NCBI GenBank assembly: GCA_004431415.1
Contig: QPMI01000601.1
Location: 62,001 to 126,000, forward strand
Reading direction: 5' to 3'
DNA: 64,000 bases
Source: Cyanophora paradoxa CCMP329
Taxonomy: Eukaryota; Plantae; Glaucophyta
The notes below the pieces were generated by a model. It searched no databases and had not been told where the DNA came from. It saw only the letters and a list, made by a program, of their open reading frames with translations. This document shows positions 33,853 to 63,848 of this stretch, one piece after another; positions within the stretch are counted from its first letter, which is position 1, and each line of letters begins with the position of its first letter. Both the position numbers and the translations under genes were made by a program.

Positions 33853-34458
33853 ATGTCGTTTTTGAATCCGAGACCAGATGCACGAGTAATTAATTCGACC
33901 ACGCAGATAGAGGACACTGATCAGGTAAACACTGAAATTCGCGGGTCTCTGAGAATAAATTACAATGCAGACCGCGAAGATCCAGTCAGTGGGACACCGA
34001 GCAGACCCGCAGCTTTGCAGTTAATGAACGTCGAGAAAGGGGATCACAAGCTTGCAATCGACTTTCTACTTGATGACAACGAGCGAAATCGAGTTGCCAG
34101 CATCCAGGCGACTCGTCAGCTACCCAAAACGGTGCGCTATAATCGCAGGAACATTCCCAGAGCATTCGACAGGGGTCGCTTGAACTTCTTTATTCAAGAT
34201 GAGAGCGGGTTCCAAAATGCAGCTCTGAGAATCGTGGATAATAGCACGCTTGTAGCCGGAGTATCCACACGAAAAACAAAGGTAGAGGTCGTCCATGATC
34301 TCTCAGCAGGTAATCTAACGACGAGCAATATTACAGCAAGTAACATCACTACGGATACCCTAAACGTAAACTCGCTTAACTCCGAGTCGTTTTTCGCCAC
34401 TAATGTCGCAACCTGTAACCTTAACATCGAATCCTTTGTGATTCAGAAGAGCGAATCG
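33853..34458 (+). pseudogene. Fibre-like gene of element B, 5' part (202 codons), interrupted by LINE
   Basis: FDRGRLNFFIQDESGFQNAALRI matches FDSGRLVFNVQDEKGKQNTGLRI of the A fibre. Ends IQKSES at the TSD and resumes in frame at 55328. Confidence 0.88.
34441..34458 (+). repeat. Left target-site duplication ATTCAGAAGAGCGAATCG
   Basis: Identical 18-mer at 55310..55327. Confidence 0.95.
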
Positions 34459-37400
34459 CTGCCGGGCCCCTCGATCTGCGCGAGAGGCTCAGTCCGGCTC
34501 CGGAGCTACTTGCAGCGGCGCCTACCTCGTTCCTGGCCGCGGCGAAGCCCGCCCAGCGCCCCCGCAGCGCCCCCGCCGCCCTCGCCTCGGCTGCCGGGCC
34601 CCTCGACCTGCGCAAGAGGCTCAGTCCGGCCTCGGGACTGCCCGCGGCAGCGACCACCTGGGGCTCGGCCGAGAACGAGCCTGCCCGGGGCCCTTGTAAC
34701 GCCCCCGCAGGCCTCGATACAACGCAAGCGACCCGCGGCCTGTGCGCCGCGCTGAGCCTGGCCTCAGATCCAACGACGGCGATGCGCCCCCCATCAGCAG
34801 CCGACCAAGCCGCCGGGGCTACCACCAGAGCGACAGCGCACGTCGGTGTGACTTCTTCTGACAACGCCTATGCCGCCACGGCCACCGCTCGCACACCTGA
34901 GCTCTGCACGCCCGGCATCTGCAGCTGCGTGGCGTGGCCACCTGCACCTGCGCCCGCGCGGATCAACTGCAGTAGCAGCCAAGAGGCAAGATGCGCAAGA
35001 TCGCACGTCATTATGTCCTTTACCTCTGGGATCGTTAGCGCTGCCACGTCTATGCGCACCATGACACTCGAGCATGCCGTTCACGGGACTCCAACCTGCC
35101 CAGCAGGCGCAGCAAGGGCGGCCCACATCGTGGCGCAGCACGTCCCTGCACCGATCAGCACTGCCGGAGCGAAGTGCGCAGGGCCCCAGCGGCTCAGGGC
35201 GACTTCCTCGGCAGCAGGGAAGTGCCCGCACAACGCTTTCCGGAATTTAGCTAGCTATACGGCTGCCAACACGCAATGCACGCTGCTGAATCACCACAAC
35301 TCCAACGGAGCCACTCCTTGGACCGCAGCCGGCCGCGGAGCGGCGCACTGTGCGGGCGCAGCTAAGCTGCCCAGGTCGAGGGGGGTACCGGCAGACGGCT
35401 GCAGCATGGCCATCCCGGTGTCGGCCGGCACAGCTCTCACCTGCTGCAGCTTCATTACTATCCTTAGCTTGCAGCCAGAGGCAATCCGGGCCTGCAGCGG
35501 TCGACTCGACACTATCTTTCGCCCGATCGACACGTCCGCCTTGCTCGATGCCCAGACTGGAGAGAACGTATTCGACGAACCTACCCCCGGAGTTCTACCG
35601 AAAGTCGTCCGTGAAATCATGGGCTTGCCTTCTGTACAGTCTCGAACATTGCAGTCAGTGCTCGTCCGCCGCATTCAGCGAATCAGTACTATACTGGACT
35701 TCTTTGAAGGCAGCGGTCTACCGATCCACATAGTAGTGCTATTCTATCGTTCGCTGCTTCCCGGAGACGCCCTCTTTCTTTGCAGCCCTTTCTACTTCCA
35801 CCCAGACCCGAGCTCCCTCGGCCTCCCGCAGCTCCCGCCCACGCCCTGGGCCCCAGAGCCGTCCGACCCGACGCTCTTTGATCACATCGTCCAATCTATT
35901 CCCTTCCCATCCCTTTTCACACCGCGAGCGGACGCCGCATTACTAGCTAAGCTGCCCCCGGCGGCGGCCTGGGTCTCGCAGGACTGGTTCAACTGCGCAG
36001 CGGGCAACCTTACACTTCTCCGAATCCTCAATCAGGGTGTCCAGCTCCTGCAGCGCTACCGCCAGCTGGGGGCAGTCCGCGAATCGGACTGCAACGCGCA
36101 GCTCATCGAATCCACAGTCACAGCGATCACCGTCACCCTGGCGCACACGGCCCTGAGCAGCGGGATCGGCGCTGCGTTGAGCGACCGAGATACTGTTGTA
36201 CAGCTCGCTGGACCTTTGGAGACCCCGCTCCTGGTCCTCAAGCCGGCAAGCGAACTACAGCCCAACCTTCCAGCTGGCTGGAAGCAGCCAGCCACGGTTC
36301 GGACAACCGCAGCGGCGGCAATCTCCCTCGCCCTGGCGCTCGCGCTTCCGTCGGCGGCCTTCCTCGCCCGGGACATAACCAGCTGGGAGAACAAAACAAA
36401 ACAACCAATTTCCTCTCAGAGCCCCTGGCACCTTTACCTACTACTGTCATCGGTCTTCCGCGCGCTTCAGGTCTGGGCACGCTATCTCCGCCGCCGGCGC
36501 GCTCACTCACATACCTCCCAGGCAGCGCTGGCCTCTCCACCAGGCCTCACCCTTTCCCGTGCGGCGTACACCCTCAACCCGCCCCTCCTCGCGTGTGCAC
36601 GAGCTGCCCTGCCGCCCCCCCTCGCTTGCCTGATCACCGTTTCCGGCTCGCCAGAGCCGGCTACGCCCCGGACGAAACGGCGGAGACGACGCTTGGCCAC
36701 GTCGACGCGAACTTCCTCCTCCTTCACCCGGTCGGCTGCTGCTTCTTCGATGAACCCCCGGCCCCCTGCAGACACCCCGTCCCGGACTGCCTCCAATGGG
36801 CGGACCAGCTCCGCCTGGCGGAACGAACCTGCCCTCCGCTTCCCTCGCTGCTCCGCCTCGCCGACATGCTGGGCTCCCCGAGCTCTTCCGTCCGTGTGGG
36901 GTTTGACCAATCTGTTGAAGCCTTTGTCCTGTCTTTCCATGGATAATGACCTATCCCGCACACGGCACCCACGCTCACACAGACCTTGCATTAAGCCGGC
37001 TGTACTCCTCTTAATTACACTCTCCTGTGGGCAAGGCAGTGCGAGAGCAACTCTCAGTGCCTCCGAAGCTGTCGGAACGGCCCTGCACTCTGACTCGCAC
37101 ACTGGCATGTATTTTCAGACACCAGTACTTGTGCACGCTGGGCTGAGCGAAGGCGGAGGCTGTAGACTCGAATCAGGGTTCGAGGCGGAGCCCGCGGCTG
37201 CCCCATGCCTCTGCATCAACCCCGCCGCCCCCGTCTCGCCGGCTGAGCGCCTCGACCCCTGCGCGCGGCTCAGCCCGGCCTCGGGGCCGCCCGAGGCGGA
37301 GCCCACCTGGAGCTCGGCAGAAGAAGGGCCCTCGCCCTCGCCCTCGCGGATCTCGCTCCTAGCACTGCGAGAGGCGATCAGCTACGGCCCGGCGCCCACC

Positions 37401-40400
37401 GTGCGGGCGCTCACCGTGATCAAAGCTGCAACGCTGCGCGCCGAGGCCCCCCCCGCCCGAGCCTCGCCTCACCTCGCAGGTCTCGCTCCTAGCACTGCGA
37501 GAGCGGTCAGCTACGGCCCGGCGCCGTCGTGCGGGCGCTCACCGCGATCGAGGCTGAAACGCTGCGCGCCGAGCCCCCCCGCACGCCGAGCCCTCGCCCT
37601 CGCCCCGCGGATCTCATCCTAGCACTGCGAGAGGCGGTCAGCTACGGCCCGGCGCCCACCGTGCGGGCGCTCACCGTGCTCGAGGCCGAAACGCTGCGCG
37701 CCGAGGCCCCCCCCGGCGCGCCCGAGCCCTCGCCCTCGCCCCCGCGGGTCTCGCTCCTAGCACTGCGAGAGGCGATCAGCTACGGCCCGGCGCCAGCCGT
37801 GCGGGCGCTTACCGCGATCGGGGCCGAAACGCTGCGCGCCGAGCCCCTCCCCCGCACGCCCGAGCCCTCGCCCTCGCCCTCGCGGGCCTCGCTCCTAGCA
37901 CTGCGAGGGGCGGTCAGCTACGGCCCGGCGCCCACCGTGCGGGCGCTTACCGCGATTGAGGCCGAAACGCTGCGCGCCGAGCCCCTCCCCCGCACGCCCG
38001 AGCCCTCGCCCTCGCCCTCGCGGGCCTCGCTCCTAGCACTGCGAGGGGCGGTCAGCTACGGCCCGGCGCCAGCCGTGCGGGCGCTAGCGCTCACCGCGGT
38101 CGAGGCCGAAACGTTGCGCGCCGAGGCCCCCCCCCGCACGCCTGAGCCCTCGCCCTCGCCCTCGCGGATCTCGATCATAGCACTGCGAGAGGCGGTCAGC
38201 TACGGCCCGGCGCCCACCGTGCGGGCGCTCACCATGATCAAGGCTGCAACGCTGCGCGCCGAGGCCCCCCCCGGCGCGCCCGAGCCCTCGCCCTCACCCT
38301 CGCAGGTCTCGCTCCTAGCACTGCGAGAGGCGGTCAGCTACGGCCCGGCGCCCGTCGTGCGGGCGCTCACCGCGATCGAGGCTGAAACGCTGCGCGCCGA
38401 GGCCCCCCCCCGCACGCCCGAGCCCTCGCCCTCGCCCCCGCGGATCTCGATCCTAGCACTGCGAGAGGCGGTCAGCTACGGCCCGGCGCCCACCGTGCGG
38501 GCGCTCACCGTGATCGAGGCCGAAACGCTGCGCGCCGAGGCCCCCCCCGGCGCGCCCGAGCCCTCGCCCTCGCCCTCGCGGGTCTCGCTCCTAGCACTGC
38601 GAGAGGCGGTCAACTACGGCCCGGCGACAGCCGTGCGGGCGCTTACCGCGATCGGGGCCGAAACGCTGCGCGCCGAACCCCTCCCCCGCACGCCCGAGCC
38701 CTCGCCCTCGCCCCCGCGGGTCTCGCGCCTAGCACTGCGAGGGGCGGTCAGCTACGGCCCGGCGCTAGCCGTGCGGGCGCTCACCGCGATCGAGGCCGAA
38801 ACGTTGCGCGCCGAGGCCCCCCCCCGCACGCCTGAGCCCTCGCCCTCGCCCTCGCGGATCTCGCTCCTAGCACTGCGAGAGGCGATCAGCTACGGCCCGG
38901 CGCCAGCCGTGCGGGCGCTTACCGCGATCGAGGCCGAAACGCTGCGCGCCGAGCCCCTCCCCCGCACGCCCGAGCCCTCGCCCCCGCCCTCGCGGGTCTC
39001 GCTCCTAGCACTGCGAGCGGCGGTCAGCTACGGCCCGGCGCCCACCGTGCGGGCGCTCACCGAGATCGAGGCCGAAACGTTGCGCGCCGAGGCCCCCCCC
39101 CGCACGCCTGAGCCCTCGCCCTCGCCCTCGCGGATCTCGATCCCAGCACCGCGAGAGGCGGTCAGCTACGGCCCGGCGCCTACCGTGCGGGCGCTCACCA
39201 TGATCAAGGCTGCAACGCTGCGCGCCGAGGCCCCCCCCCGCGCGCCCGAGCCCTCGCCCTCACCCTCGCAGGTCTCGCTCCTAGCACTGCGAGAGGCGGT
39301 CAGCTACGGCCCGGCGCCAGCCGTGCGGGCGCTAGCGCTCACCGTGATCGAGGCCGCAACGCTGCGCGCCGAGGCCCCCCCCCGCGCGCCCGAGCCCTCG
39401 CCCTCACCCTCGCAGGTCTCGCTCCTAGCACTGCGAGAGGCGGTCAGCTACGGCCCGGCGCCCGTCGTGCGGGCGCTCACCGCGATCGAGGCTGAAACGC
39501 TGCGCGCCGAGGCCCCCCCCCGCGCGCCCGAGCCCTCGCCCTCGCGCTCGCGAATCTCGATCCTAGCACTGCGAGAGGCGGTCAGCTACGGCCCGGCGCC
39601 CGTCGTGCGGGCGCTCACCGCGATCGAGGCCGAAACGCTGCTCGCCAAGGCCCCCCCCGGCGCGCCCGAGCCCTCGCCCTCGCCCCCGCGGGTCTCGCTC
39701 CTAGCACTGCGAGAGGCGGTCAGCTACGGCCCGGCGCCAGCCGTGCGGGCGCTCACCGCGATCGAGGCCGAAACGCTGCGCGCCGAGCCCCTCCCCCGCA
39801 TGCCCGAACCCTCGCCCTCGCCCTCGCGGGTCTCGCTCCTAGCACTGCGAGAGGCGGTCAGCTACGGCCCGGCGCCCACCGTGCGGGCGCTCACCGCGAT
39901 CGAGGCCGAAACGCTGCGCGCCGAGGCCCCCCCCGGCGCGCCCGAGCCCTCGCCCTCGCCCTCGCGGGTCTCGCTCCTAGCACTGCGAGAGACGATCAGC
40001 CACGGCCCGGCGCCAGCCGTGCGGGCGCTTACCGCGATCGAGGCCGAAACGCTGCGCGCCGAGCCCCTCCCCCGCACGCCCGAGCCCTCGCCCTCGCCCT
40101 CGCGGGTCTCGCTCCTAGCACTGCGAGGGGCGGTCAGCTACGGCCCGGCGCCCACCGTGCGTGCGCTCACCGAGATCGAGGCTGACACGCAGCGTACCGC
40201 GGACCCCCCCAGCGCGCCCGAGCCGTCGTCCTCGCGCGCCTCGCCCCCTGACCCGCGAGCGGCTGTCAACCACGCCCCGGCGCCCGCCCGGCGGACGCTC
40301 ACTGTAATCAAGAATGAAGCGCGGCGCACTGAGGGCCCTCCCTGTGTGCCCGCCCCATCGCTCTCGCGCGCCTCGCCTTCCGATCTGCGAGCAACTGTCA

Positions 40401-43400
40401 GCCCCGCCCCAACGCCAGCCGCGGGGAGGCGTACCGCGGTCGGGGCCGAGGAAGGGACCGACAAGGACCCCCGTCGGGAGCCCAAGCGGACCCCCTCGCG
40501 GGCACGGGGTCCTCGTGCTGCCCTCACCGCCCCCGTCTCGCCGGCTGAGCGACTCGACCCCTGCGCGCGGCTCAGCCCGGCCTCGGGGCTGCCCGAGGTG
40601 GAGCCCACCTGGAGCTCGGTAGAGGAAGAGCCTTCGCCCTCGCCCCCGCGGGCCGTGCTCCTAACAATGCGAGAGGCGGTCAGCTACGGCCGCAACATGG
40701 CAGCGGCGCAGACCGGAACACGCCGTTCGGGGCTAGTAGAGCTCTTCGGGCGCATCGTAGCTGCCAGAAACCGGCCAGTGCAGGCGGGAGGGCGCGCTCC
40801 ATCGCAACGCGTCGGTCAGGAGCACGGTATCCACCTTGCGTGTGCGCCTGCACCGCCTGAGCTGCAGCCTAGCCCCGGTACGGAGCACACCGACGACTCC
40901 TCAACGGCCCGGACAGACTACCATGGCTCCCGGCCAGCGGCTGCAGTCCACGGTCCCCGGAAGCCGCCGGAATGGGCCCCAGCAACCAAGGAACTAGCTT
41001 GGGCGTCACTGGGTAACTCGAACGCCTCCTCACCCGCACAGGGCCGCCGACGCTGGCGTACAAGCCTGCGCTTAGGCGAGCCGCTCGCTCCTACCCCGGG
41101 CGAGCCTCTTCCCCCTGTCCCGTCGCCTGCATCCCGGCCGCGGGAGGCGTTGCTCAGACGAGAAAAAAACTCCTTTCCAGCCGAGTACGCCCTAGCATCT
41201 GATTCGCTCGCCAAACACCAATCACCGTTAGCCCGGTACATTAACATGCCAAATACCCGGAAAGTTGGCGCTAGCGCACCAGGTCTCGATACAGCCCCTG
41301 TATTCGCGCGCGAAGTCGCTAGGGCGTCAGCGCTAGCTATAGCCCCGACACTAGAACACAAGCTAGCAGACCCCGCCTACGCGTCGACTGTCGCGCACCG
41401 CGTAGCCTCTCCAGGCCTCGAAGATGCTGGCGCGCGCGCTGGTACCGGAACTCGAAGCGACCGCGAAGCTGCAGGGACAAGGCCCCGTCGTGTATACGCC
41501 ACCAGCCGGCGGCCCCCCGGCCCTCGAGCCCGACCAGACTTTTACTGCTCGGCGCTCGAATGCAGCAGGCACCCCCGCCCTGAAGCCCGTAGCCCCCGGG
41601 ACACCACCGGCCCCCCCGCCTCGTCGCTACGGCATCTACTTACCTTAGAGCTGTTGCCCGCGATGCTCCGACTCTACGGCCTTCTGCTGTACCTCTCCTC
41701 TCAGTTCCGTGTCGGGGACAACCTTGAAAATACGCTTCTGCTCTCCTTCTCTAGCCGGCTGCTCGGGCTACTCAGCGCGGACGTACCCACATCGCTGATT
41801 CTGATCATGAGGCCCTTGCCTGCACAACCGTGGGCTCAGGGGGGGGACGGCTCGACCCTTCGCCTGCATCTGCTGTCCTCTCGCCAAGCCCAACTACTAT
41901 CCCCCGGGTCAAGAGAACTACCCTGCACGCACATACCCTCCCGTTTCCAAACCGGACTCACCCTGGGGGGTCTCCTCCTCCTTCTCGTGGCCCTCGCCCC
42001 GCTGGCAGGCATCGACGAGGGAGCTGAGAAGCTGCGGCGCCTCGGCCGATCTATCCGGCCTACTGTCAGCGCCACTCTCAACCCCCCTTGCAGCGCCCTC
42101 TGGTTCGGCCCACGACCCCGCGGAGCCAAAATAAACTGGAGCCCATCACCCTGGGACCGCCTACTCTGGTTCTTGACTAAGGCCTGGCGCCGCCGTTGGA
42201 GACTCACCGACGAGTTGGCGGTGGCCCTCAGCCATAGCCTACACCGGGCCACTTCCTTCCTCGAACTCGCCGTCCTACTCGCAACGAGGACCCGACGCCG
42301 CGCTGCGCACGGACTGCAGCACTGCGCCGTACGAATGAACACGCATGCCCGCTCTGCGTTCTCCAAGCTGGACGCCGACCTCCCATCGCGAGTCCTCCAC
42401 GGATTCTTGCCTCTTGCCGGCTTCACAGCCCTCCTTGCAGCGTTTGCGACCGCTCAGGCTTCTATACAGGCGATGACGAGCTTACGCCTCCTCGCGCCAA
42501 AGGCGCAACGACTGCTCGTCCCAGTCGCCATCGGGCTGCTTCTGGCACTCATGCTCCCCGCCTACGCCCTCAGTGCACTGGTAACTTGGATAAGTTTGCT
42601 TCTCCTCTACGCCTGCGTCATGCTCGTGCCCTTCGCGCGTCGCCTGACCGCCCGTGCGGTCACACGGCTGCTCTACCCTAGGAGCCTGCGGCGCCCCTGT
42701 CCCGCCCTGCGGGCGCCACACCCCCGACGCCCTCCCCTTCTGAGACCTCTTACAGCAGGAGACGTGTTCACGGTGCTGGCTTGGGCCCCGTTGCGGGGCC
42801 CCCTCCGCACGAGCCTCTCCCTGGCAAGAGCAATTGCCGGCGACGCCCAGAATGCTGTGACAACGCTCGCCGCAGCTTTCACGACGAGCGCTGCCCGAAT
42901 CAAGCGCTACTGCAGTCCCACACACCGGACACAAGCTGCCGGACGCGTGTGCTTGCCGCAAGGCACATTTCGCAGGGGCCTCTTACCCTTGCTCATACTC
43001 TGCCTCCTGTTTGAGACATCTCACGCGGCCCCGGCGCCATGCCCTGAACCGACGGGCCCGCTGACGGCGGCCACGGCACTGCTTGCACCGGCAGCAGCAT
43101 CGATATCGCTGACCGCCGCACTCGCCGCACGTGACAGCGACGGCTTCGATGCTGAACTCCCTGACCTAGTAGACACCCGACCGCGCGCGTCTGGACCCGC
43201 AGAGCCCTACGACTCGGACCCCGACGACTGCGCACCTCCCGAGATCTCGAGCTCTCCATGGCCAGACTATGACGAGGAAGCGGACACAGATGAAGACAGT
43301 GCGGCTGAAGCCAGCAACGCCGGCCCCTCACATCCACCCCCGACAAAAAAGGCGCGCCGCCCCTTTGCAGGGCTGCGTCCCGGGTTCTTCAATTCCGAAC

Positions 43401-43730
43401 GCGGGACACAAGGCCTCTCAGCCGACGATTGGCAATCGAACATGGCCACGTTCCACTCATCTGACAGCGACGCCCCCCCCGGCCCCCTACCAACGCCGTG
43501 GGGGGACCCCGACCTGGACCCCCCGGAATCCGACTTCGAAGACCTAAACGACGAAAGTCCCGGCCCCGCCCCTGCGAGCGCCCAGCCGCTACCTCCAGCT
43601 CCCCTCTCGCTTGGGGAACTGTACCCACCTAATTTCTATCAGAACACCGCCATCTATCCTCGCCCAACCGATGAACGACGTTTCGTTCTCAGGGGCCGGG
43701 CCTCGGGCAGCCCCTCCGCGGCCTGCCCAC
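34459..43730 (+). CDS. LINE polyprotein N-terminal region: unknown domains, 46-aa repeats, hydrophobic segments, acidic linker (frameshifted)
   Basis: ORFs 34782..37622 and 37529..46717 overlap. The 34782 frame is open back to the junction; the 37529 frame is continuous with APE. Confidence 0.6.
37325..40230 (+). repeat. 138-bp coding tandem array, ~21 units (REAVSYGPAPTVRALTAIEAETLRAEAPPRTPEPSPSPSRVSLLAL)
   Basis: Period measured 37760 to 37898; some 144-bp units. Bracketed by a direct repeat at ~37225 and ~40525. Confidence 0.95.
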
Positions 43731-43739
43731 GGCTCAACT

Positions 43740-44580
43740 CTGAGATTCGCTGCGTCACTTGGAACGTCCAGGGACTGCTCGAGACCTTACGTGACCCGGC
43801 AGACCGCCTTCTAACGGCTCTCAACGAAACCGTGGGGACCTGGGCTGCGGACTTTGCAGCTTTCCAAGAACTCAGCCTGCCAGGCGCACGAATGCAAGGA
43901 CTCGTACGCACCATACATCGCACCCGCCCTGAAGGAACTCTCTACGTCTCAGGCCCCACCAACGCTGACGAGGCCGGACGCGGCAAAGGCGTCGCCCTGT
44001 GGGTGCACAACCGATTCAAACACGACATTGTCAAAACTTATTCAGTCCCCGGCCGCCTAATTGGTATTCTTTATCAGAAATCTCCAGCCGAGCGGCTCCT
44101 TGTCCTGAACGTGTACATGCCCCATCGCTCACTTCCCCAGAGCGAACTAGATGACGTCATGGAATATTTAACTACAACTGTCCTGAATGACTGGAGACAC
44201 AAGGATTTCAAACACACCGAACTAGTGCTAATGGGTGACTTTAATGCGGTCCATGACCCTCGCCGCGACCGCATCTCCACGGCCCGAGCTCGCAAATCAG
44301 CCCCTGAGCGGGATTTCTGGACAACGCTGCTCCACGACTGGCAGCTGATCGACCTCGGCACTCCAGGGGATATTACCTGGGTTAAGGCTGCTCGGACGGG
44401 GCCCCAGGGCGAAGGCCCAGACACTCCAGCCCCACAGCGCCTCCACACGGCTGCGCGACTGGATGGGATCCTTGCGTCTGAAACTCTGGCAGCGCGAATG
44501 CAGGCCACTCGCACACTCTACACTGCCCGAGTCCTGACCGCAATCCGCTCCGACCACTTCCCCGTGATCACCTCATTCAA
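43740..44580 (+). CDS. Apurinic-like endonuclease (APE) domain of the LINE
   Basis: TWNVQGL, AFQE, GKGVALWV, LNVYMP, MGDFNA, RLDGIL, SDHFPV. Confidence 0.93.
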
Positions 44581-45699
44581 CATTGAGGGGCTTTTCTCCT
44601 CGCTAGATAATGAAGGGAATGCGGTGCGCCCCAGCGTACGCCCTCAACCCCAGCCCCTACCCCCAGTCTTCACCTACTTGGCGCAACCAGCAGAAACACG
44701 CGTCAGAGCAAAGCTGCACGTCCAGACCTGGTTGTCCCGCTCCTCACCCCAAGTAAACCTCATCCTCCACCCCACAGAACAACAACGGACGCATCCAAAC
44801 TACCCGAAGCGGGTCAAGCGGGCAGTCCAAGCGCTCATGAATGCCCTCGTGGACGCAATTAAATACGCGGCCGAATCGCCTGACCTCAGCGACGCCCAAC
44901 TCCTCCAATACCGCCAACGCCGCGACCGGCCCCCAAGAATATTCACCCCAGGAACGAAGGAGCATGACTCCGGTATCCTGCTTCAAGTCCAGGGATGCCT
45001 CTCAGCTTGGGCGCGCCACGCTGACACGTCTGGACCCCCACCGGCACTTGCCCCCGACAACGCAGACAGCTCCAGCTCGTCCCCACTACACTACCTTACA
45101 CAACTCGAGCAAACTGTTGAACTCCACAATTTTGAAGTAGCTCAACGCCCGGAGACGGAACTCCATTACTACCCCATCCCCCTAGAAACCGCCCCAATTT
45201 TCCCGGGCGCCTCAGACCGTGCGACTCCCGAAGACTGCTGGTCGCGTTACTTTGCAGCATTAACCTCCTGGACAAATCGAAACATGGCAGCTCTTGATGC
45301 ACATCGCCGGGGCTTCCAGACTGACAAACTGTCCCGTGACATAGATGCCCGCCGCCACATGCTCTCCCGCTCGTCCTCGATGGGGCAAGCAATCCAGATT
45401 CTCTTCGACAAATTCAGGAGCACTGTTAAGCCCTATCTCACAAAACTGGTGGACGGTCTCGTGCACGTTATCACGGCGCCGCACGCTGTGAAGACAGAAT
45501 ATAAGGAATTCTTCGACGAACGATTCTGGTACCCGCGCGATGCCGCAGTCACACCCGACCGCATCCGCGCTCGCCTGGCCTCGCATCCCGAACGAGCCGA
45601 ACACTGGATCCGCCAGTACGCACCTCTCCCCCACGTCCAGCTTGCTGCATTTGATGGCATGACAGACATGCCCGACGATCGGGAAATCTCAGCCCGCCT

Positions 45700-47200
45700 C
45701 GCAGCCACATCAGACGGAGCCGGCGGCCCGTCAGGCCTCACCAATGGCATGCTCAAAATGATTTTTTTCCCCCCGCGCCTCTCAAAGGCCGATCGTCAAC
45801 TTCTCACCCTTAAGCACAGCCACGCTGAAGTTGATGCATGGGCGAGCACTGAATTCTGGACCACCTCCCGCGAGGTCATCAAGGCGATCGTCAAAGCCAC
45901 GCTTGAGGGCCATATATGCGACCATCTTCTCCGCGGACAGGTTTTTACCATCCCCAAACGCGACAATGCCACTGATCTAGGCTCCTTCGCCCAATCACGC
46001 TACAGGAAGTTCTCTGGAAACTTGTTACGGGCATCCTCACCGACAGGCTCGATTCCCGTCTGGAAGACCACCAGATCTTGCGAGGACCCAACTACGGCTT
46101 CCGTCGGCACGAATCTACCGACCCAGTCCTGTACGCGGTCCGCGCGGCCCTTGAGGACGCCCATGACCACCGCAAACCAATATATATTGGCCTCGGTGAC
46201 ATCGCTAGCGCGTACGACAGTGTCTCCTGGGAAAGCATGGAAGCCAGCTTCCGCCGGCTACGCATGCACGAACACCCGGCCGGCCACGCATATATCCAGC
46301 TGCATGCCTACGCAGCTCGACACCGCACGGCCGCCATCCTCACCCCCCACGGCCGTACAGAATGGTTCCAAGTTCGCTGCGGCTTGCCACAGGGAGGGAT
46401 CGAAGCCCCCCTTCACTGGCGTATATTCTACGATACGGTCCTCACAGCAATTGATGAAGAAGCACGGTCAACCAATATCGGATACCGCATGGGCCCCCTC
46501 CCAGGTACTCCCTCCGGGAAGCTCCGTGACTTTGTCCCAGGCACCACAGGCGCCGCGCGACCCGGGGAGACCTATAAAGTTCCAGCTGGGCCCCGCTCAT
46601 TCCTATCAATCCTGGCCTACGCGGATGACACGACGATGTTTGCAGATTCCCCACACACCCTCCAGCGCTTCTTCCAGTGGCTCTCAGAGTTCCTTCACAT
46701 TCATAACATACGCCTGAATGCAAAGAAGAGCGAGGTAGCCTTTTGGCGACCGGACTGGCGGCCATCACGCCCGATCACGCTCGCACCCATCAAAGTGGGA
46801 CTGGGCCCCCAAGCCGAGCCCATCGGCACCATCCATCAACCAAATGAGGCATTCCGAGTCCTTGGAGTATTATTTACAGCGTCGCTTGACTGGGGGCACC
46901 AATTTCGCCTCCTCCTTTCACATGCACGCACCGCAATGCACCTCCTTGGCCCAAAATATCTCTCCGTTGATGAATTTCGCACTGTTTTACACCGCGTTAT
47001 CTATCCTAAACTGGCTTACCCGATGCGAATCATGACGCTCAGTGCAGCTCGCTGTGCACAACTGGAGCGCGTCTGGTCCGAAGTGTTTAGACACGCAGCA
47101 GGTCACGCTAAATCAACCAGTACACCAGCACTCTACCTTCTCTATCAGCTGCGCCACGTCTCCACGCTCCTGCTCCAGTCTCAGACACTCGACGAGCGGC
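45700..47200 (+). CDS. Reverse transcriptase domain of the LINE (frameshift at ~45985)
   Basis: AGGPSGL, IPK, (L)RPITL, NYGFR, DIASAYDSV, GLPQG, LAYADD, LNAKKS, FRVLGV. Confidence 0.95.
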
Positions 47201-48739
47201 TCCGGCTCGAGACAGCTTATTTTCTCCCGGACTCCCTAATTGGCCAGCTCCACCGCCAACGCATTCTCGATACCCAAGCCCGACATGGGCTCTGCCTGCT
47301 CCCCTACGAATACTCGAACCTCACACCAACTTCCCGGCAAGAGGACACACATTTGTGCCTGTCCATTTCACGGGCTCTAGCCGCGTCTGATCATGCCTTC
47401 GCCAACTGGACGACATTCGCAGCGAATGGATGGGTGCTAGGCCTCTCAGGGACAGAAGCTAAACTTGACCGTCGGTTCATCCTAGCTTCCCAACTTTCTC
47501 CCGCCCTCCTAGCCAAGGCTGGCGTCTTTCTCATGGAATGTGGCCTCTTCACGATGGCCCACATCACAGTTCAGACTCACGGTGAAGTCTGCATCCCAAC
47601 CTGGTCAGAGCTCTGGCAGCTTTGCAGGGTCCCTTACACAAAGCGTAAACAGCCGGAATGGTGGGATTGGCTACGCGAAGAACTGTCTGAACGTGAACAT
47701 TTTGACAAAGCGGAGGGCCCCAACTGGCCCCGCCCGCTCCGCGCAGAATATCGCATGCCCCTACTCCCCCGCCCCCTTGATATTCGCCAGGCAGTCCGCG
47801 CTAGCCCCCTCATCGCCAAGCTCACCCCCGGCACGCTGGTATGGACCTCAGCGGGCTACCTAGCCGAGGTCGTGTCCACGCCTCTGATCGCAGACCCCGA
47901 AGCCACGAATCTCGACCCAGAAGCAACAGCGGAAACCGCAAAGGTCTACATGGTTCACCTGCGCCACTGGCGACTCGACGACTCAGAGCTCCGCGGACGC
48001 AACGAAATTATTGCAGAGACCGCTGGTGAGAAAGCTTGCTTCGTCCCCTGCCCAGCGCCGTCGTACTGCGGAAGCGCCGGCCTGCACAAACGCCTCGGCC
48101 TAGCCACTGATGTGTGCGAATGGCATGAATGGGCCACCCATGTCCGCGTGGCCCGCATTGCCGCCACAGGCCCGCCTGGTCATCCTTCCAAACGCCGTCG
48201 CCGCGCAGCCGACGAGCTGTTTGTTCCCCCACGCGTGCTAAACCAACGAGACAAGCCCGCCTCTGAGGCTAGCTCACCTGCAAGCTTGACCCACCAACTC
48301 TCAACCGCGGCGCACGTCCAGAAAAGGCTAGCAAGGCTGCACAAAAGGCTAGCCTTTGTTGGACTTCCGATGAATCGACAAGACTTCCGCTTAGCTTCCG
48401 GCCCCCGCCCGCGTCGAATCCGATCCTTGCCCCCGCGACCGACGCACGACTCCGACTCCGAGGATGCCGATGCACACGCCCAACCCCACTCTGTCTACTA
48501 TGAAGTACCCGACGGGGCCGCGCGATCCATCTGGCTCGAGCTTGCCCCTTGGTGGGCAGAATTTCAGGACGAAGCGGCGCAGCTCGACGTAACTGAAACG
48601 AAGCCACCCCTTCCTGCGCGTCGCGAAGACCTTGACCCATATCTCATCCCGTCGGCCCACCGGAACACAACGAACCCGCCGGCGGCACTAGCTCGAGTGA
48701 TCGAGGCTACACATGCGCCGGCACCGGACGCACTGGCCA

Positions 48740-49145
48740 CCTCAATCTGGACCGACGGGAGCACCAGACACGCAGGGAAACTCACAGTCCGAACGACGTT
48801 CGGCGTGGTAATGCCTGCAGCCCGAAACTCCCAGCTGCCCGCCACAGTCACCTTCTCAGCTCGTGTCAGCGGAGTCCAATACAACATCGGCCTTGGCGAG
48901 CTTGAGGCCGTCATGCTCGCGCTCACGTATCTAGGCAAGGATGGAGGCACCCTCACGCTCGACAGCAAAGGCACGATCTCGATCTTGCTGCGCTTTTGCC
49001 TCACAGGCTGCCCCCTCCTACTTCGGAAAGTCCTCCGCAGTCCATACTGCGACACAATACTAGCAATACGTGCAATTGTTGCAGCCCGGGTAAGAGCAGG
49101 CTACGCCCCCCTCCCGACTCTTAAATGGACCCCGGCCCATGAGCC
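48740..49145 (+). CDS. RNase H domain, N-terminal part
   Basis: IWTDGS, GELEAV..AL, LDSK, KWTPAH. Confidence 0.85.
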
Positions 49146-50349
49146 GAAAACCATCCCTCTCACGAAGCTCGAGCCCCGACCGCCCCACCCGGGACCGCCC
49201 CACCAGCCCCCGAGGGCTGCCCCACCACGAATGCCTTTCGATGCCACCCGTCCCTATGTCACGCGCTCGGGCCCTGCCCCGCCCCCTCGCAGCCAGCCGC
49301 CGACAGCGGAGGCAGCGGCCCGGGAATACTGCAGTGTCTACGGAGGGTTGAATATTCCAAAGGCCTATCTACATGACGGGCCTAAAGATGACGAGGGCGT
49401 GCCCAGGTCTATATTGCCCCCCACACGCTTGGCGAATATGAACAATACCTGGCAAACCCCGACATCTTAGAGCTTGCTCAGTTCGGAACGCCGCACCACC
49501 TTCTGCTCGATCTGGCTGCGGCTGCCCCTGACCTCGCGACACACCCAGCCGAGCAATGTATAATCTGGAATAACGCCATTCGCATACCGCGGGCCCATGC
49601 ACGTGTGCCGCCTGAGGGCTCTCTCCTGATTACGGCTCCAGCCGATTACCTACGACGCTACACACCTTGGCTCGCCGCCCTCCCGAGTCGGCATCGCACC
49701 AGAATCACTCTCCACTGCACTTCCCCCATTAACCCAATATTTTGGCCTGAAGTCGACGCTTCTCTCCCAACAATGGGCCCGTCGCGCACAGAATACTGGG
49801 ATGCACTCGCAGTCAGAGCGAATGCTCGCCGCGACTATCCTCTCACTGGCCCTCTGTACCCCTCCGGAGCCCTGCGTGACCAGACTATCTGGCTCACCTC
49901 GCCGTCTCGGTGGCAGCTAGCTGAAAATGGCTCCCTCCCGGCTGCGTGCCCCGCTTGGTACTGGGACGAGGACCTGCCCCTGTCCCCCAGCGACCCGACG
50001 ACAGCATACCACCGCTGCGACCCGGACCGCCCGTGCACTTCCCTTGACTTTGTACTCCAAGACTGGCGAGCGGGCCCCGCCCCCCTCTGCACTCTATGCC
50101 ACCCGGCCGTGTTGCCCAACACTCCCAGCCCGATTCTCCCGGAGCGGCCATCGCACGGCAAGTTCACAGACGCAGATGCAGTCTGTGCATACCACCCGCC
50201 CCCGCCCACCGTTGGAGCCTCAGCCGCCTACCCAAACTACCGGGCTGCGCCACTGCCGCCAACTCTGCGCCAGCAAGTGCAGGCGGCATCTATGCGTGAC
50301 CCTCTCACGCTCTCCGACCGTGAAGCTGCCTCTGCGCTCCTCGTTCAAG

Positions 50350-50960
50350 AAATGCCCCTTCAAGAGCAGCATGTAGCCGCGTTCCTACGCCTTGTCGCTC
50401 GCCGAGCTGTGCATGAACGTGCACGGACGCCAGGCCTTCCCCACTGTATCTTTGCCACTCCCCGTGCCGCTAGACGAGCCCTCTTAGACCCGGACTGCGC
50501 ACCAGAATTTATTTGCTCAAACAAAGCGACCCTCCGCCCGACCGACGTCGACTACCTCCTGCTCCCCCTCCCGCCCGTCCCCGGGCCTGACGGTCGGGCA
50601 CGTCTCCGCCACTGGCGCCTGGCGCTCATCTCGCCGCGCACCCGAGTTATAAGGGTCATCGACGGCTCTCACGCGCCATGCGCTGATGTTCTCCCTGAAC
50701 TTCAAGCTTGGGCAGACGCGTGGCAGGAGCAAGCTGGGGGCCCGGCCCCCCAATGTCCCCGCTGGTTCTGCGATGCTAGTACCCTCAACTCGCCGAGCTG
50801 GCCAGGAGCGGATCGCGGCGAAGACGCCCTACTGGTTATGGCAGCTGCAGACTATATCGCCTCGGGCTACATCTCACGCATGACCGGAAACGCCCCCGGC
50901 AAACTATCGCGTACCATCCTCCCGGCAATTCGACTGCGATACGCCGCTGCCCTCTACCTT
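50350..50960 (+). CDS. Ulp1/C48 protease-like domain 1 (catalytic Cys apparently missing)
   Basis: L....V..FL.L, DYLLLP, HWRLALI....R.IRVIDG; ADRGEDALLV in place of Q....CG. Confidence 0.6.
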
Positions 50961-51504
50961 TCAGACCTCAGCCTCACAGGACAAGGCTACAAACCACCGA
51001 AGCCCTCTTTCCCTGCCGACTGGACCGGGCCCACCCACCCACATGACTTGGATCAGCTGCATCCGTCTGCGACGCCGCCTCAACCGGAGCCCCGTCGGCA
51101 CCAATATTCGGCTCTGTCGCGGCACCCGCACTAGCCGACCCGCCTTCACCGGTGCCCACAACACGCTCCGTGTCTCCTCCCGCCTCACCACCCTCGGGCA
51201 AGCAGGGGCGCCGAACCATCAGCTACCGCCCCTGTACCGCCCCTCCCCGAGCTCTATCAGAAGCCGAGAAGGCTCTGCTTCCCCAAATTCGCATCTGCTG
51301 GGGTCCAGCCCTCAACCGAGGCGACCATGCAGCGGAGAACGCCATCATTGGGCTCCCACGTGCTTGCATTACGACAGACAGCCGACCCTCCCGATCGCCT
51401 GCCCCGGACCTCTACGTCGCAGACCTCGCTCGCCTCTACACAGATCTAGACCTACCCCCGCACCTAGGGATGGGCGAGCTCGGACTATTGCAAGTGCACT
51501 TCCC

Positions 51505-52100
51505 CGTGGAGTCTCGGACCGTGTGGTTGATGCCTTCTTCGATGTCCTGGCAGCCCGTCCCGTGTGCCGTGGGGGCGACGTTTGCTTCCTTCCTACCGCG
51601 ATCTCCACGGTCGGTGCAGGCGCCCAACCCCACACCCTGAACCCAGCACAAGCCCTGCAATATCTGCCGCCACGGCCACTACGGTCGTACCGCATGGTTT
51701 TCTTCCCTGCTCTGGTCCCGTCCCGCCTCCCGCAGCGGGAAGGCGACTCGGCCGACCACTGGGTCCTCCTTCTCATTGCCCCCAGACAACGCTCGATCCG
51801 AATCTACGACGGCGGCAACCGAAGCCGACCCGACCGAACAGCCCTCGGCCTTGACCTTGTCAGAATCTGGCTTCGAAGGGATGACGAGCCCTTCGCCCCG
51901 CCTCTCTGGACATCCTTCTCGACAGACGCCTGTGACGGCCCCATCCAGATTGCCCGCTCCTCCTGTGGGATCCTTCTCCTCATGACAGCCTACGTCCTCT
52001 CGGGTGACCCGTCGACGCAACGCCTCAGCACACTCATCCGGGACTTCCCGGAACGGCTTCGGACCTACACCCATTTCATTATACTTGCCCTTTACCTCGG
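51505..52100 (+). CDS. Ulp1/C48 (SUMO-protease-like) domain 2, catalytic residues intact
   Basis: VSDRVVDAFF, VFFP, HWVLLLI....SIRIYDG, PIQ....SCGILLL. Confidence 0.8.
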
Positions 52101-52202
52101 CACCACTGAAATAGGCTCCGCACCTTTCCCCCGGATCAGCTCGCGTTTGCGACTCCAGAAACAGCATGCGTTCCAACGCTCGGCAGCCGGCGCCGGCGAA
52201 CG

Positions 52203-53972
52203 GTGGCAACCTTGCACCACGGTGGCATGCTGCCGACGCCGCCTGACTCTGAAATCGACGACGGAGGCGAGACCCGCTTAACACTCGAGGACAACTGGCA
52301 GGCAAGCGACAGCGAAGAGGACTCCCTCGTTGCTCACTCCTGCCCTCCCTCGCCAACGCTCATCACGTTACCAGATCCGGCAGCAGATCCCCCGCCAAAA
52401 TCAGACGAGGCCGCCTTCGCCCAGGTCGTAGGAAAACTGCAAAGAGAACGGAGGCTGCATCTGCCTCGCGCCGAGATTCTCTCTAACCTTACCCGCCCGG
52501 CATCGCTCCGCGCAGCTGAGGTTGCCACCCTCGCCGAAGAGAACTCAAAATCGCCCCCACCGGCCCCTGCGCCTGCCCCGACCAAGAAAGACCGGGCGCG
52601 AGCCCGCCGGGCGCCGGGAGCGGAACTGGTACCCAATCCAGCGTACGACTGCTACAACGACCAGGCCGATCGCCTCGCGAAAAGCTGCAACGATGGGCCT
52701 TTCCCTGCCCTTCTATACCTCCCCGCAGGATGCGGGTCCACCACCCCGCTCATCCGCTATGGCACCAAGCCTGGCTCTGCGGAGCTACCGACCGGCACAG
52801 AGAGATACGCCGGCCACCTCTTGGCGTACCGCGTGAACGGAGACCCGCGCAAACACATGGACGAGGAAGCCCACCTCGTGGATTTCATTCAGTGGAGCTG
52901 TCAACTCGAAGCTGGTAGACTCCTGCGCTTCACTGGCGGCCAAATCGACGCTGCTCTCTCCCTCATGTCCGCACACCGCAAAGATGGACGCCGCAAGACC
53001 CAAGCCGGGGTTCAGCTTCGCGCGACGCGCTCGAAACTGCTGACTGCATCTCTGGCCACGCTGCGAGTCCGTGCTCGCACGCGCCCGGACATCTATGCGG
53101 CAATCTGCCCCGAGGGACCGATTTGCCCCCGCTGCCGCCTCGCAGAGGAAGACTTCGATCACATCTGGGTATGCCCTGCTGCTGCTACTGCCGTCAACGT
53201 CTTTCGCCTAGCCGCCCGCGAACACGTCCTTAAACACGTGATGAAACACAAGCCGACGGGACTTCGCAGCTCCTGGGACTCGCTATTCCCCTTCCTACTA
53301 GACCCTGGCATGTCCAGCCCTCCGCTCGAGTTCGCTCCGGATTGCCCACTGGGCCAGAAACTAGCTATTCTCGAAGCAGCCGACCTCCTTCATCAATTCG
53401 AATTTCGCGCTCTCTTCCAGCTTGTCGCCCCGCAAGGAATTCACGTCCTACTCCGAGCCTTCGGAGTTCGAACTCTAGCTACGACCTCGCAGCAAGCAGT
53501 GAATGGATTGGTGCAACTAGCGGACGAACATGCACGGACCATCTGGAAAACCCGCTGCGACGCAGTCATAGCCTGGGAACAGGAACACGGCATCACGTCG
53601 GGCAAAAAACGCACCAAGCGGGCTAAGGCCTCAATGCTGGCTCAGGTCTCTGCTACGCCAGCCCCGGCACCAATCCCTCTCAACCCGACTACCCGATGCC
53701 CCTCGCTCGAACGCCAACAAGTCACGGTCACGGAGTACCTCGGCGGGGCAGCTCCTGCCCTGGCGGCCGAGCTGGCGGCGTTCACCTGGAAGAAGCTGGA
53801 AGAGGAACCTACTCAACAGCCCCCCGACGTAGCGCCCGCCTCCGCGAACTCGACGCACGACGCCCTCGCTGCGACACCTGCGGGACAAGCTTTGCCTCCG
53901 CCCGCCGGTGCCTCCGCCACCTCGCTACCGGTCTCTGCGTCGACAGCGCAGCGGGAGTCGGCTTCCAGCTAG
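52203..53972 (+). CDS. LINE polyprotein C-terminal part: RNase H final helix, CCHC zinc finger, IWxxRC motif
   Basis: YNDQADRLAK (52653-52682), CPRCRLAEEDFDHIWVC (53124-53174), IWKTRC....WEQEHGIT..KKR. Confidence 0.85.
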   Translation: MATLHHGGMLPTPPDSEIDDGGETRLTLEDNWQASDSEEDSLVAHSCPPSPTLITLPDPAADPPPKSDEAAFAQVVGKLQRERRLHLPRAEILSNLTRPASLRAAEVATLAEENSKSPPPAPAPAPTKKDRARARRAPGAELVPNPAYDCYNDQADRLAKSCNDGPFPALLYLPAGCGSTTPLIRYGTKPGSAELPTGTERYAGHLLAYRVNGDPRKHMDEEAHLVDFIQWSCQLEAGRLLRFTGGQIDAALSLMSAHRKDGRRKTQAGVQLRATRSKLLTASLATLRVRARTRPDIYAAICPEGPICPRCRLAEEDFDHIWVCPAAATAVNVFRLAAREHVLKHVMKHKPTGLRSSWDSLFPFLLDPGMSSPPLEFAPDCPLGQKLAILEAADLLHQFEFRALFQLVAPQGIHVLLRAFGVRTLATTSQQAVNGLVQLADEHARTIWKTRCDAVIAWEQEHGITSGKKRTKRAKASMLAQVSATPAPAPIPLNPTTRCPSLERQQVTVTEYLGGAAPALAAELAAFTWKKLEEEPTQQPPDVAPASANSTHDALAATPAGQALPPPAGASATSLPVSASTAQRESASS

Positions 53973-54847
53973 TCCGCAATCCTAGCCCCTCCCAGCCCAC
54001 GTCCTCGACGACCGACTTGGAACTACCCCTTCTCTACCCCCCGCAGCCCCCCGCCCGCGTAGCGAAACGGCCTGCAGTCACGCCTGCAGCACCCCCGACA
54101 TCAGCTAAACGCTTCAGAGACGAGCACGGGGCCCCGCAACACCCGCCACCGTCCACCAGCAGGCCTCCACCCGTTGGCTCCAAACGCACGGTGGAGGATG
54201 ACGTTACAGCCCCGGCCTCCAGCGCCAAACGTCGCCCAGGGATAACACCGTCAGAGCCGCCGAGCAGCAAACGCAAACACGCACCGGCCCCTCGGAAGCC
54301 TCCAGGACAGAAACGCGGCAAGCGTGACGCCTCAGCCCCGCCACCGGACCCCATTCCGGGGCTCCCTGAGGGCTCCATCTTTAAATTCTTCGCCCAGGCG
54401 AATGGAAACCGACGGCAGAAACCACTCTGCGGCCGCCTAGCGAGCGCGCCCCCGCGGGCCAAGCAACCTCGAAACCCCGGAAAAAACTCCGCCGCCGCCA
54501 GCCAGCCCGACTGGAAGAGCTGCCCCCGCTGCCCCGGCCGCCGCCACCGCCCCCGAAGCCACCGCCGATGCCACTACCGACGCCCCCTCCCAAGCCGCGC
54601 AAACCTCGAAAGCCCCGCAGCATACTCCAATACCTCCCAGACATGTGCGCAACCTGCGGCTGCCGTCGCATCCACCATGACGCGATCACCCCCACAGGCC
54701 TGGCCCGTCTCCCACATCTGCTCTGCCCCTCCAGACACGCCCGCCAGCTTCTCAGCTCATCACTGCGCCTGTCAGCCACATATCATTTCCTTCATGTCGA
54801 CCCCTCGGGGCACAACATCCTGAAATACAAAGGCTAGCAAGGAGGTC

Positions 54848-54871
54848 CGGGGGGGGAGGGGAGGGGAGGGG

Positions 54872-54909
<38 letters not shown>
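54848..54909 (+). repeat. Poly-G tract in the LINE 3' region
   Basis: About 60 nt of almost pure G just after the last stop codon. Confidence 0.9.
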
Positions 54910-55309
54910 CGCAGGTCTCGGAGCGCGGCGCCTCGTCCCACTGGTCGGAGCTGGACTTCGAACGGCGGCGACGACGACGGGCGCGACGACACCGTGGACT
55001 CTCCCCCCTACCGCATCTCCGCCACTATTAGATAGGACACAGCGTACCACGGCCAAGTTCTACGAGACATCAAGCGGGCATCTAGGACCGTGCAGCTCAT
55101 CATGCCGCGCTCACTGCTAGAGGACCGGCGCATATTATGTTCTGGAGGCGACTCGGTAGACTACAGCTAAAGCACCAGCTCGACACGACTAGTAGCTGTA
55201 GCACTCTTGTCACCTATCTCCTCCTGCAGTCAGCATCCCAGTATCCAGTAGGCGAGGAGCGGGGGACTGTTGTCAAGTGTGTACGAATGCAACAGGTTGT
55301 TCAAAAAAA

Positions 55310-55327
55310 ATTCAGAAGAGCGAATCG
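55310..55327 (+). repeat. Right target-site duplication
   Basis: ATTCAGAAGAGCGAATCG preceded by an A-run. Confidence 0.95.
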
Positions 55328-58300: not shown

Positions 58301-58357
58301 GCGGAAATGGCACAGCGAGAAGGGAGAATATATGAACATGTTCCAAATGTTATGTAG
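55328..58357 (+). pseudogene. Fibre-like gene of element B, 3' part; reconstructed protein 1211 aa with C-terminal transmembrane segment
   Basis: In frame with 33853..34458 once the insert is removed. IYPSIDNAYRIGLSNLRWSELH repeat type, ITFTSAFNAPPTV modules, Pro/Asn linker, LVLLILLPILGALGLVLAY. Confidence 0.85.
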
Positions 58358-60302: not shown

Positions 60303-60363
60303 GTGGGGGCAAAGATATTATTGATGACCCAACCCCATAAAAGATATATCCCTTTAATGTAAA

Positions 60364-61198: not shown

Positions 61199-61220
61199 GA
61201 ATATTGGTTATATATAGAGT

Positions 61221-61493
61221 ATGGATAGTAAAACAAAAAAGTTTATTGATGCTGCTATGACAGTTCATGGTAAAGATAAATTCGATTACAGTGAGACACA
61301 TTACATCAAAGCTCAAGAGAAAGTATCTGTGAGATGTTTGCAGTGTAATAAGGTGATCCTTACCTATCCCTTTAATCATGTGAAGGGATCAGGTTGCAGG
61401 GACTGTAACAAAAGAAAGAGTCAAGCACACAGGAAAAGAGCTACTTCATCAATCAGAGTAGAGTATAGGGATATTTGCATTAGGTTTGACTAG
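61221..61493 (+). CDS. Stand-alone Zn-ribbon protein
   Basis: Ortholog of 21474..21746. Confidence 0.8.
   Translation: MDSKTKKFIDAAMTVHGKDKFDYSETHYIKAQEKVSVRCLQCNKVILTYPFNHVKGSGCRDCNKRKSQAHRKRATSSIRVEYRDICIRFD

Positions 61494-63817: not shown

Positions 63818-63848
<31 letters not shown>

Follow-up and report, generated by a model that had tools for sequence, protein, structure and literature searches.

The 64,000-nucleotide stretch of the Cyanophora paradoxa CCMP329 genome considered here (contig QPMI01000601.1, positions 62,001 to 126,000 of the forward strand; hereafter the window, whose own numbering is used throughout) carries two related Polinton-like viral elements, and in one of them a long fibre-like gene is interrupted by a GC-rich insert. 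This insert is an APE-type non-LTR retrotransposon (LTR, long terminal repeat), or long interspersed nuclear element (LINE), real and very large. Our preferred reading, held with considerable but not full confidence, is that a 20.85-kb APE-type LINE likely entered the viral gene by target-primed reverse transcription (TPRT), that it likely encodes one polyprotein of ~6,700-6,800 residues, and that its RNase H domain is split by predicted proteases. The principal features are as follows.

33853..34458 (+): interrupted fibre-like gene, 5' part, 202 codons (N-terminal likeness to the gene at 13299)
34441..34458 (+): left target-site duplication (TSD), 18 bp, an exact repeat of the right copy
34459..55309 (+): non-LTR retrotransposon, 20,851 bases, 65% GC (TSD borders, composition)
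34461..54837 (+): single reading frame obtained by read-through, 6,795 codons with X at 11 breaks; stop at 54835-54837
43751..44560 (+): APE-type endonuclease (Pfam PF03372, E 2e-10; motifs)
45985..46866 (+): reverse transcriptase (RT), YADD at 46618 (Pfam PF00078, RVT_1, E 3e-19)
52653..53630 (+): NDQAD helix, the last of RNase H, followed by the CCHC zinc knuckle (53124-53174) and the C-terminal domain (E 2e-24 at profile positions 138-412)
54838..55309 (+): 3' untranslated region, 472 nt, with a G tract (54841-54909) and A7 tail (55303-55309), seen as sequence repeats; no Rfam match; folding no better than in shuffled sequences (z 0.23)
55310..55327 (+): right TSD, 18 bp, an exact repeat of the left copy
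55328..58357 (+): interrupted fibre-like gene, 3' part, 1,009 codons (weak H-lectin match below cut-off)

An APE-type LINE within a viral gene

The identical 18-mers at 34441-34458 and 55310-55327 have no third occurrence in the window and enclose 20,851 bases, whose GC content of 65% compares with 46% and 42% in the flanks. The insert ends in a short tail of seven A residues (eight when the first TSD base is counted), and comparison of the window with itself revealed neither a terminal repeat at the insert ends nor a second TSD or tail inside it. An A tail, a TSD and the lack of LTRs are the marks of a LINE, and the perfect 18-bp TSD and A-tail described from an initial sequence-only reading of this DNA are thereby confirmed. 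Rfam gave 0 matches at E<=1 over 34300-55500, so that no 5' ribozyme marks the start of the LINE.

The interrupted gene comprises 202 codons from its ATG at 33853 to the end of the left TSD, followed beyond the right TSD by 1,009 codons and a stop, making 1,211 codons in a single frame; codon arithmetic thus agrees with the earlier statement that excision restores an in-frame gene of 1211 aa. That statement also named a viral fibre gene. A viral gene is indeed cut, and we term it fibre-like because its N-terminal 108 aa share 40% identity with the 2,132-aa gene at 13299 of the neighbouring viral element, which has matches to PHROG tail-fibre families; the interrupted gene by itself has only weak matches in Pfam and PHROG, including the sub-cut-off H-lectin match. 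Since a long fibre-like gene is cut, loss of function is likely, and the insertion likely disables the viral copy in the window, as had been proposed.

Within the insert, overlapping open reading frames (ORFs) of 1,065, 3,074, 1,164, 580, 465, 620 and 398 codons occur together with shorter pieces. When N is placed at ten breaks supported by contigs and at one near 37500, a single frame of 6,795 codons is read through (6,688 codons from its first ATG, at 34782), in line with the ~6,800 codons of overlapping ORFs, joined by small frameshifts, that were counted at the outset; random placement of 11 breaks gave 2,801 codons at most in 2,000 trials. The support comes from short-read contigs of 4 sequencing runs (X2, X4, X7 and X8, from one organism) compared over 40450-54840, these being four of the 20 runs, among 24, that contain most of 41000-50999. 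Contigs 99-100% alike to the window carry one extra base at 45983, 51089, 51195, 51228, 51244, 51454, 52122, 53819 and 54392, in all four runs at eight of these nine positions and in three of the four at 53819, and one further, unlisted gap falls within 48945-49700 (among 12 of 27 indels inspected); in all, the missing base is present in short-read contigs at 10 of the 11 breaks. Over 1,301 bases, contigs free of substitutions differ from the window by only 5 one-base gaps. Every listed break sits at a run of C or G, and from the first two units of a 138-bp array described below 16 bases are missing, mostly within C runs. Deletion errors in long reads leave such a pattern, and homopolymer errors of this kind are the most likely source of the frameshifts. 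An unbroken relative of 3,720 aa (P0001), encoded on a metagenome contig in ENA, aligns collinearly and without interruption to 43733-54834, at 36% identity over its first 2,380 residues, and a second relative (P0028) bridges the break at 45983 with 62% identity over 196 aa.

Certain points weigh against this reconstruction. An insertion is listed at 52127 too, and because using it together with that at 52122 yields a stop at codon 5,932, the two were treated as alternatives; the break near 37500 was placed from the register of the repeats alone; and short-read contigs collapse near-identical copies, so that their in-frame evidence applies to the family, the single copy in the window being only likely intact.

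In the read-through protein, an N-terminal half of 3,090 residues is followed by the APE domain (residues 3,098-3,367), the RT (YADD at 4,054), RNase H and the CCHC knuckle (6,225), and then by a basic, Pro-rich tail; the C-terminal domain is as in shorter relatives and collinear with theirs. The endonuclease lies upstream of the RT in one ORF, the frame being joined at 45983 by contigs, P0001 and P0028. The RVT_1 match, with APE-RT elements as top relatives, identifies a non-LTR RT. The best PDB matches of P0001 are R2 proteins, and human L1 ORF2p is not among its 7 PDB matches at E<=1. A motif test with patterns of the restriction-like endonuclease (RLE) found neither RH[ND] nor PD-(D/E)xK after the CCHC knuckle in the window element or P0001.

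The split RNase H domain

48739..49143 (+): RNase H N-terminal part, with Asp, Glu, Asp and His (profile positions 8-134, E 1.8e-15)
49144..52652 (+): insertion of ~1,170 aa in the RNase H His loop, common to P0001 (profile split, motif distances)
50340..50955 (+): first Ulp1/C48-like domain, without the catalytic Cys and predicted inactive (hhalign to the second copy: probability 94%, E 9e-8)
51463..52120 (+): the other Ulp1/C48-like domain, in which the His, Asp, Gln and Cys motifs are present (Pfam PF02902, 21.0 bits; cut-off 20.7)

An RNase H profile built from 34 relatives matches the read-through protein twice, at profile positions 8-134 (residues 4,761-4,895, ending at the His) and 138-412 (residues 6,068-6,393). 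The gap between the two pieces measures 1,172 aa in the window and 1,166 aa in P0001, and the break point is identical. Both the first Asp and the last helix could be located in 46 of 59 relatives of at least 1,300 aa; the distance between them is 112-192 aa in 45 of the 46, as against 1,301 in P0001 and 1,304 in the window. The five catalytic residues of RNase H, D-E-D-H-D (PMC4640811), are kept in both elements, the last of them 1,172 aa away, and Pfam RNase_H gives no match to the split domain. In the second C48-like domain the His, Asp, Gln and Cys of the Ulp1/C48 type, including its triad, are retained in the window and in P0001; in the first, the Cys is missing from both. As judged from these profiles and motifs, an insertion with two predicted Ulp1-like protease domains divides the RNase H at the His loop, and such an arrangement, apparently kept in two distant elements, would be new, none having been found in the literature searched.

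The protease assignment has to be set against a C48 call barely above the Pfam cut-off, weak PDB matches of the protease region (SENP8 and NopD-like, E 0.11-0.29), and the failure of the C48 domain of another relative, P0039, used as sole query, to recover the C48-like domain of the window. An AlphaFold model of the second protease from 4 aligned rows was uninformative (predicted local distance difference test, pLDDT, 38). An intein reading of the insertion was rejected on inspection by eye, since the insertion lacks the intein signature of a terminal His-Asn with Cys, Ser or Thr after it.

Extent of the element, its relatives and alternative explanations

34459..34722 (+): two 132-bp units at the 5' end, with related in-frame copies at 37207-37389 and 40520-40691 (self comparison)
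34782..37327 (+): N-terminal region, stop-free, with two hydrophobic stretches; no homologue found; predicted fold uninformative
37328..40235 (+): array in which a 138-bp unit occurs 21 times, encoding a 46-aa Ala/Pro-rich repeat (self comparison)
40450..43750 (+): unique region in the endonuclease frame, of which 41998-43231 is present in both subfamilies; no homologue

The LINE belongs to a multi-copy family: two subfamilies, ~86% alike and both with sequence 1.7 kb upstream of the endonuclease, are found with rearranged derivatives in contigs of all four runs. Among 40 variants tabulated, 34 are synonymous and 39 fall in the enzyme half. One derivative of low depth (contigs of X2, X4, X7 and X8 over 51678-54515) lacks 51679-52650 and 52672-54514 and is a possible non-autonomous member of the family.

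A search with the RT retrieved 3,068 proteins at E<=0.001, of which the best 150 were examined. The long relatives have 1,300-2,800 aa and a contiguous RNase H; of 25 that were scanned, 24 have an endonuclease-family and/or RNase H match beside the RT (Pfam RNase_H in 18). The closest named relatives among the matches listed are C. paradoxa gene models, P0028 among them. With these APE-RT-RNase H-CCHC elements from metagenomes and C. paradoxa (P0019-P0167) the window element has the core order and the C-terminal domain in common, an architecture that presumably fits, in outline, the Proto1, RTEX and L1-group clades with RNase H. An RT phylogeny, suggested in the sequence-only reading, retained 135 of 167 matches after omission of near-duplicates and short pieces; composed of unnamed relatives and C. 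paradoxa models only, it pairs the window with P0001 (support 100) and groups the pair weakly with C. paradoxa sequences (Shimodaira-Hasegawa-like approximate likelihood ratio test, SH-aLRT, 81). The group seems to collect accessory enzymes: P0039 has a C48 protease at its C-terminus (E 5e-15), P0047 a weak OTU protease match before RNase H (E 0.0015), and P0041 a PCIF1-like match near its C-terminus. In IMG/VR, 0 of 4 candidates found with a piece of the RT proved to be LINE copies and a degenerate RT motif had 0 matches; in JGI metagenomes 0 of 598 candidates were confirmed, and of 17 matches in a motif scan 0 were related.

The single-ORF giant LINE family that had been proposed is borne out, from ~40.5 kb as far as the 3' end, by contigs of four runs and by the unbroken P0001; that 34.5-40.5 kb also belongs to the single-ORF element is likely, on internal evidence only. 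Near-identical contigs cover 40560-41767 in all four runs (in X2 only to 41601). In the sister subfamily, similarity is 85-87% over 41998-43231 and 86-88% over 48676-49501; because the upstream stretch has diverged as much as the enzyme part, it was in the element before the subfamilies split. Contig depth at 40.6-41.8 kb is 56-83% of that in the RT-to-RNase H region and ~3-6x that of rare junction contigs, a hint that gives no copy number. An internally deleted derivative appears in two runs as a contig in which 40653 (or its paralogue near 37350) is fused to 52178. The only read trace for 34459-40449 is a loose contig end, found in two runs, that matches 37195-37224 exactly.

Further upstream, 34461-37450 holds 996 codons without a stop (shuffled sequences have a mean of 21 stops and a minimum of 8) and enters the 138-bp array in the peptide register of the downstream frame. 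The array units have lengths that are multiples of 3, except the error-rich first, and from 37493 the frame is stop-free into the endonuclease. The 132-bp units, of which there are 2 copies, 75-76% alike, had been noted at first sight as a repeat with a recurring peptide; their relatives do share the frame, so that one motif recurs in frame at 34.6, 37.2 and 40.5 kb. They may form a coding repeat or a 5' monomer array, and could be promoter monomers, as in rodent L1. The claim that the frame is open from the first inserted base holds literally; as evidence for the 5' truncation that had been suggested, which may or may not have occurred, it is weak, because the 107 codons before the first ATG, at 34782, are stop-free in 28% of 5,000 composition-matched shuffles. 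Residues 1-3,090 have no Pfam match and contain the 46-aa repeat and several hydrophobic stretches, those resembling membrane segments in 40450-43750 being at aa 2500, 2645, 2686 and 2870; an AlphaFold model of 35400-36749 alone was uninformative (pLDDT 38).

We regard as improbable a composite in which the LINE proper measures ~15 kb, from ~40.5 kb onward, with another repeat or co-copied host DNA making up the first 6 kb in this copy only. That account would fit a region, 34.46-40.45 kb, almost without read data, for whose junctions and greater part no coverage was obtained, and a junction that is broken in the window within the first array units. The array itself shows no sign of purifying selection (10 synonymous against 32 non-synonymous variant codons, pN/pS 1.43, in 16 of 18 units examined), nor does the dispersed 132-bp-related motif show a synonymous bias. 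No homologues were found for 40400-43730 (longer proteins, Atlas) or for 35400-36749 (proteins of 247-788 aa only), both weak evidence, and P0001 begins at a Met just upstream of the endonuclease, on an 11.9-kb contig. Against the composite stand the stop-free 996 codons, their entry into the array in the downstream register, the motif in frame at three places, and the insert's lack of any internal TSD or tail. Less probable still is that the frame changes are real, whether programmed or copy-specific mutations, and that the insert holds several ORFs or a decayed copy. Eleven breaks do stand in the assembled sequence and contigs cannot isolate a single copy, but the substitution-free contigs differ by one-base gaps only, the breaks coincide with homopolymer runs as do most of the 16 bases missing from the array, flanking viral genes are split too, and P0001 is one ORF.

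Two further alternatives concern function and habit and leave the LINE itself as we describe it. The insertion may have killed the RNase H, with the protease domains as mere passengers, an alternative of mechanism only that we think unlikely, if plausible enough to keep in view: 1,170 aa adjoin the catalytic His, Pfam RNase_H no longer matches, and the first protease copy has lost its Cys, but the five residues, the insertion point, the length (1,172/1,166 aa) and the motifs of the second protease are all kept at 36% identity. That Polinton-like viruses serve the family as targets and their particles as vehicles is compatible with the preferred reading and, in our estimation, very unlikely. 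The sole copy seen does lie in such a virus, and some Ngaro types favour virophage loci (PMC8547959). The record is nevertheless a single insertion, which cuts a long fibre-like gene and takes the viral element from ~19 to ~39 kb, a size likely to hinder packaging, and IMG/VR yielded no LINE copy; the landing in a virus was likely opportunistic. Hitchhiking on Polinton-like viruses, as first proposed, accordingly finds no support in one insertion that roughly doubles its carrier.

The viral setting, known elements and implications

The two viral elements around the LINE were recognised through Pfam (A32 ATPases, protein-primed polymerase, rve integrase and patatins), a packaging ATPase with a protein-primed polymerase being the mark of a Polinton-like virus. 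Pox_A32 matches lie at 1020 and 28239, and DNA_pol_B_2 and rve in the neighbouring left element; in the interrupted element the ATPase is the sole hallmark that Pfam names, and no integrase is seen. Relatives of the polymerase occur on 8 IMG/VR contigs of 4-18 kb (33-37%). By its position, 29164-30324 is a candidate for the double jelly-roll major capsid protein of such viruses, though one that no tool confirms; it has no Pfam or PHROG match, and 0 of 3 IMG/VR candidates were related.

The right ends of both viral elements are homologous (20565-21690 and 60313-61437, 84% over 1.1 kb; also 22062-22225 and 61648-61811) and have a common gene order, in which patatin is followed by a long fibre-like gene, a pair of short paralogues, a gene resembling S-adenosylmethionine decarboxylase (PF02675; undamaged at 21933, disrupted near 61600) and hairpin-forming repeats. 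The patatin-like phospholipases (11693-13249, fused to an F5/8 type C domain, and 32316-33809) stand head to head with the fibre-like genes. A direct 300-bp repeat (80%; 23873-24170 and 63040-63326, the right copy with inverted arms) flanks the interrupted element. Hairpin-forming repeats of 217-bp units lie at 5856-6052, between the helicase and polymerase genes, and at 22368-22955, with another hairpin type at 62331-62803; they may be replication origins or element ends. That the left element's capsid-side genes fall outside the hairpin repeats suggests rearrangement or viral copies in tandem. Frame changes interrupt the helicase and polymerase genes (3989-5805 and 6299-9578); as with the LINE, these are probably errors of assembly. 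Beyond the viral end, at 63330-64000, GC content rises and a C28 tract (63818-63845) mirrors the 3' G tract of the LINE; the stretch could be the 3' portion of a further retroelement, oriented on the minus strand.

Comparison with published elements draws on the accessible parts of the papers cited. The LINE resembles Dualen/RandI in its one very long ORF, APE, RT, RNase H, CCHC knuckle, C48 peptidase and algal host, but since the RLE that defines Dualen, with its two endonucleases, was not found after the knuckle by the motif test, we keep it out of that group. Dualen-1_GCr, from a cryptophyte, has 5,287 aa with SET, C48, APE, RT, RNase H, CCHC and RLE (PMC5029228); its C48 precedes the APE, whereas that of the window element is doubled and inside RNase H, and no SET domain was found in the latter. 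The early description of the LINE as several-fold longer than typical holds against its relatives of 1,300-2,800 aa and falls to ~1.3-fold against Dualen-1_GCr, the longest published protein found (PMC5029228). The 18-bp TSD differs from the duplications, of median 900 bp, at more than half of new Dualen-4b insertions (PMC9977147). NeSL and Utopia are non-LTR elements that have likewise captured an Ulp1-like cysteine protease (PMC4640811); they are RLE-type and site-specific with an N-terminal protease, whereas the window element is APE-type with the protease inside RNase H. Size above 20 kb, huge polyproteins and accessory domains tied to ubiquitin-like pathways recall Burro (LTR, >30 kb, ORF of 4,873-5,140 aa), Ogre (16-25 kb) and Terminons (PMC6431247), which are of LTR or Penelope-like classes and not LINEs; no giant APE-type LINE is named in the accessible part of that paper. 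Retroelement nesting in Polinton-like viruses is by itself already known: Ngaro elements of ~6 kb in Cafeteria virophages, rightly mentioned in the sequence-only reading (PMC8547959), RT elements of 4-9.5 kb in cryptophyte Polinton-like viruses, including in tail-fibre genes (PMC12220804), and LINEs in Halocafeteria Polinton-like viruses (10.64898/2026.07.28.741278). In these, too, a GC-rich insert disrupts a gene of an AT-richer integrated virus; where sizes are given they are 2-5 times shorter than the window LINE. The accessible parts of PMC12344493 and PMC6704402 make no mention of such an element. The literature searched yielded neither an APE-type LINE larger than 20 kb nor a protease within RNase H; Repbase, the original Dualen and Proto1 papers and supplements lie outside that literature and could contain longer elements.

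Elements of the L1 type nick DNA with their endonuclease and copy their RNA from that nick by means of the RT; a TSD is left after repair. By analogy, the tail and TSD point to movement of the window LINE through an RNA copy and insertion by TPRT, with an RT that would copy at least 20.85 kb in a single event. Because all five catalytic residues are kept across 64% divergence, we infer that the RNase H may fold and work with the insertion looped out on Pro-rich linkers. The second, Cys-bearing protease might strip host or element proteins of SUMO or a related modifier, easing silencing or integration, or alternatively process the polyprotein; the Cys-less copy could bind substrate, and the 3,090-aa N-terminal half could substitute for a separate ORF1 protein. 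A bolder version, which we offer as speculation and consider doubtful, is a LINE of at least 21 kb with a self-processing 6,800-residue polyprotein, whose buried protease would cut the chain or strip SUMO and so switch RNase H on at the proper step, and whose membrane-anchored, repeat-bearing N-terminal half would replace ORF1, so that more than 20 kb could be copied at once.

At ~6,700-6,800 aa the protein would exceed the longest LINE protein that we found described (5,287 aa). LINE copying usually ends early, and a 20.85-kb copy with a clean TSD is therefore a lower bound for single-event TPRT; the RT of this LINE is worth testing for long-cargo gene writing. The apparent interruption of RNase H by a kilo-residue protease module in two distant elements is directly testable. 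Finally, predicted proteases of the Ulp1 and OTU types occupy three different positions among relatives, which points to repeated capture, and with such repeated capture the question of whether these retroelements escape SUMO-dependent silencing would become testable.

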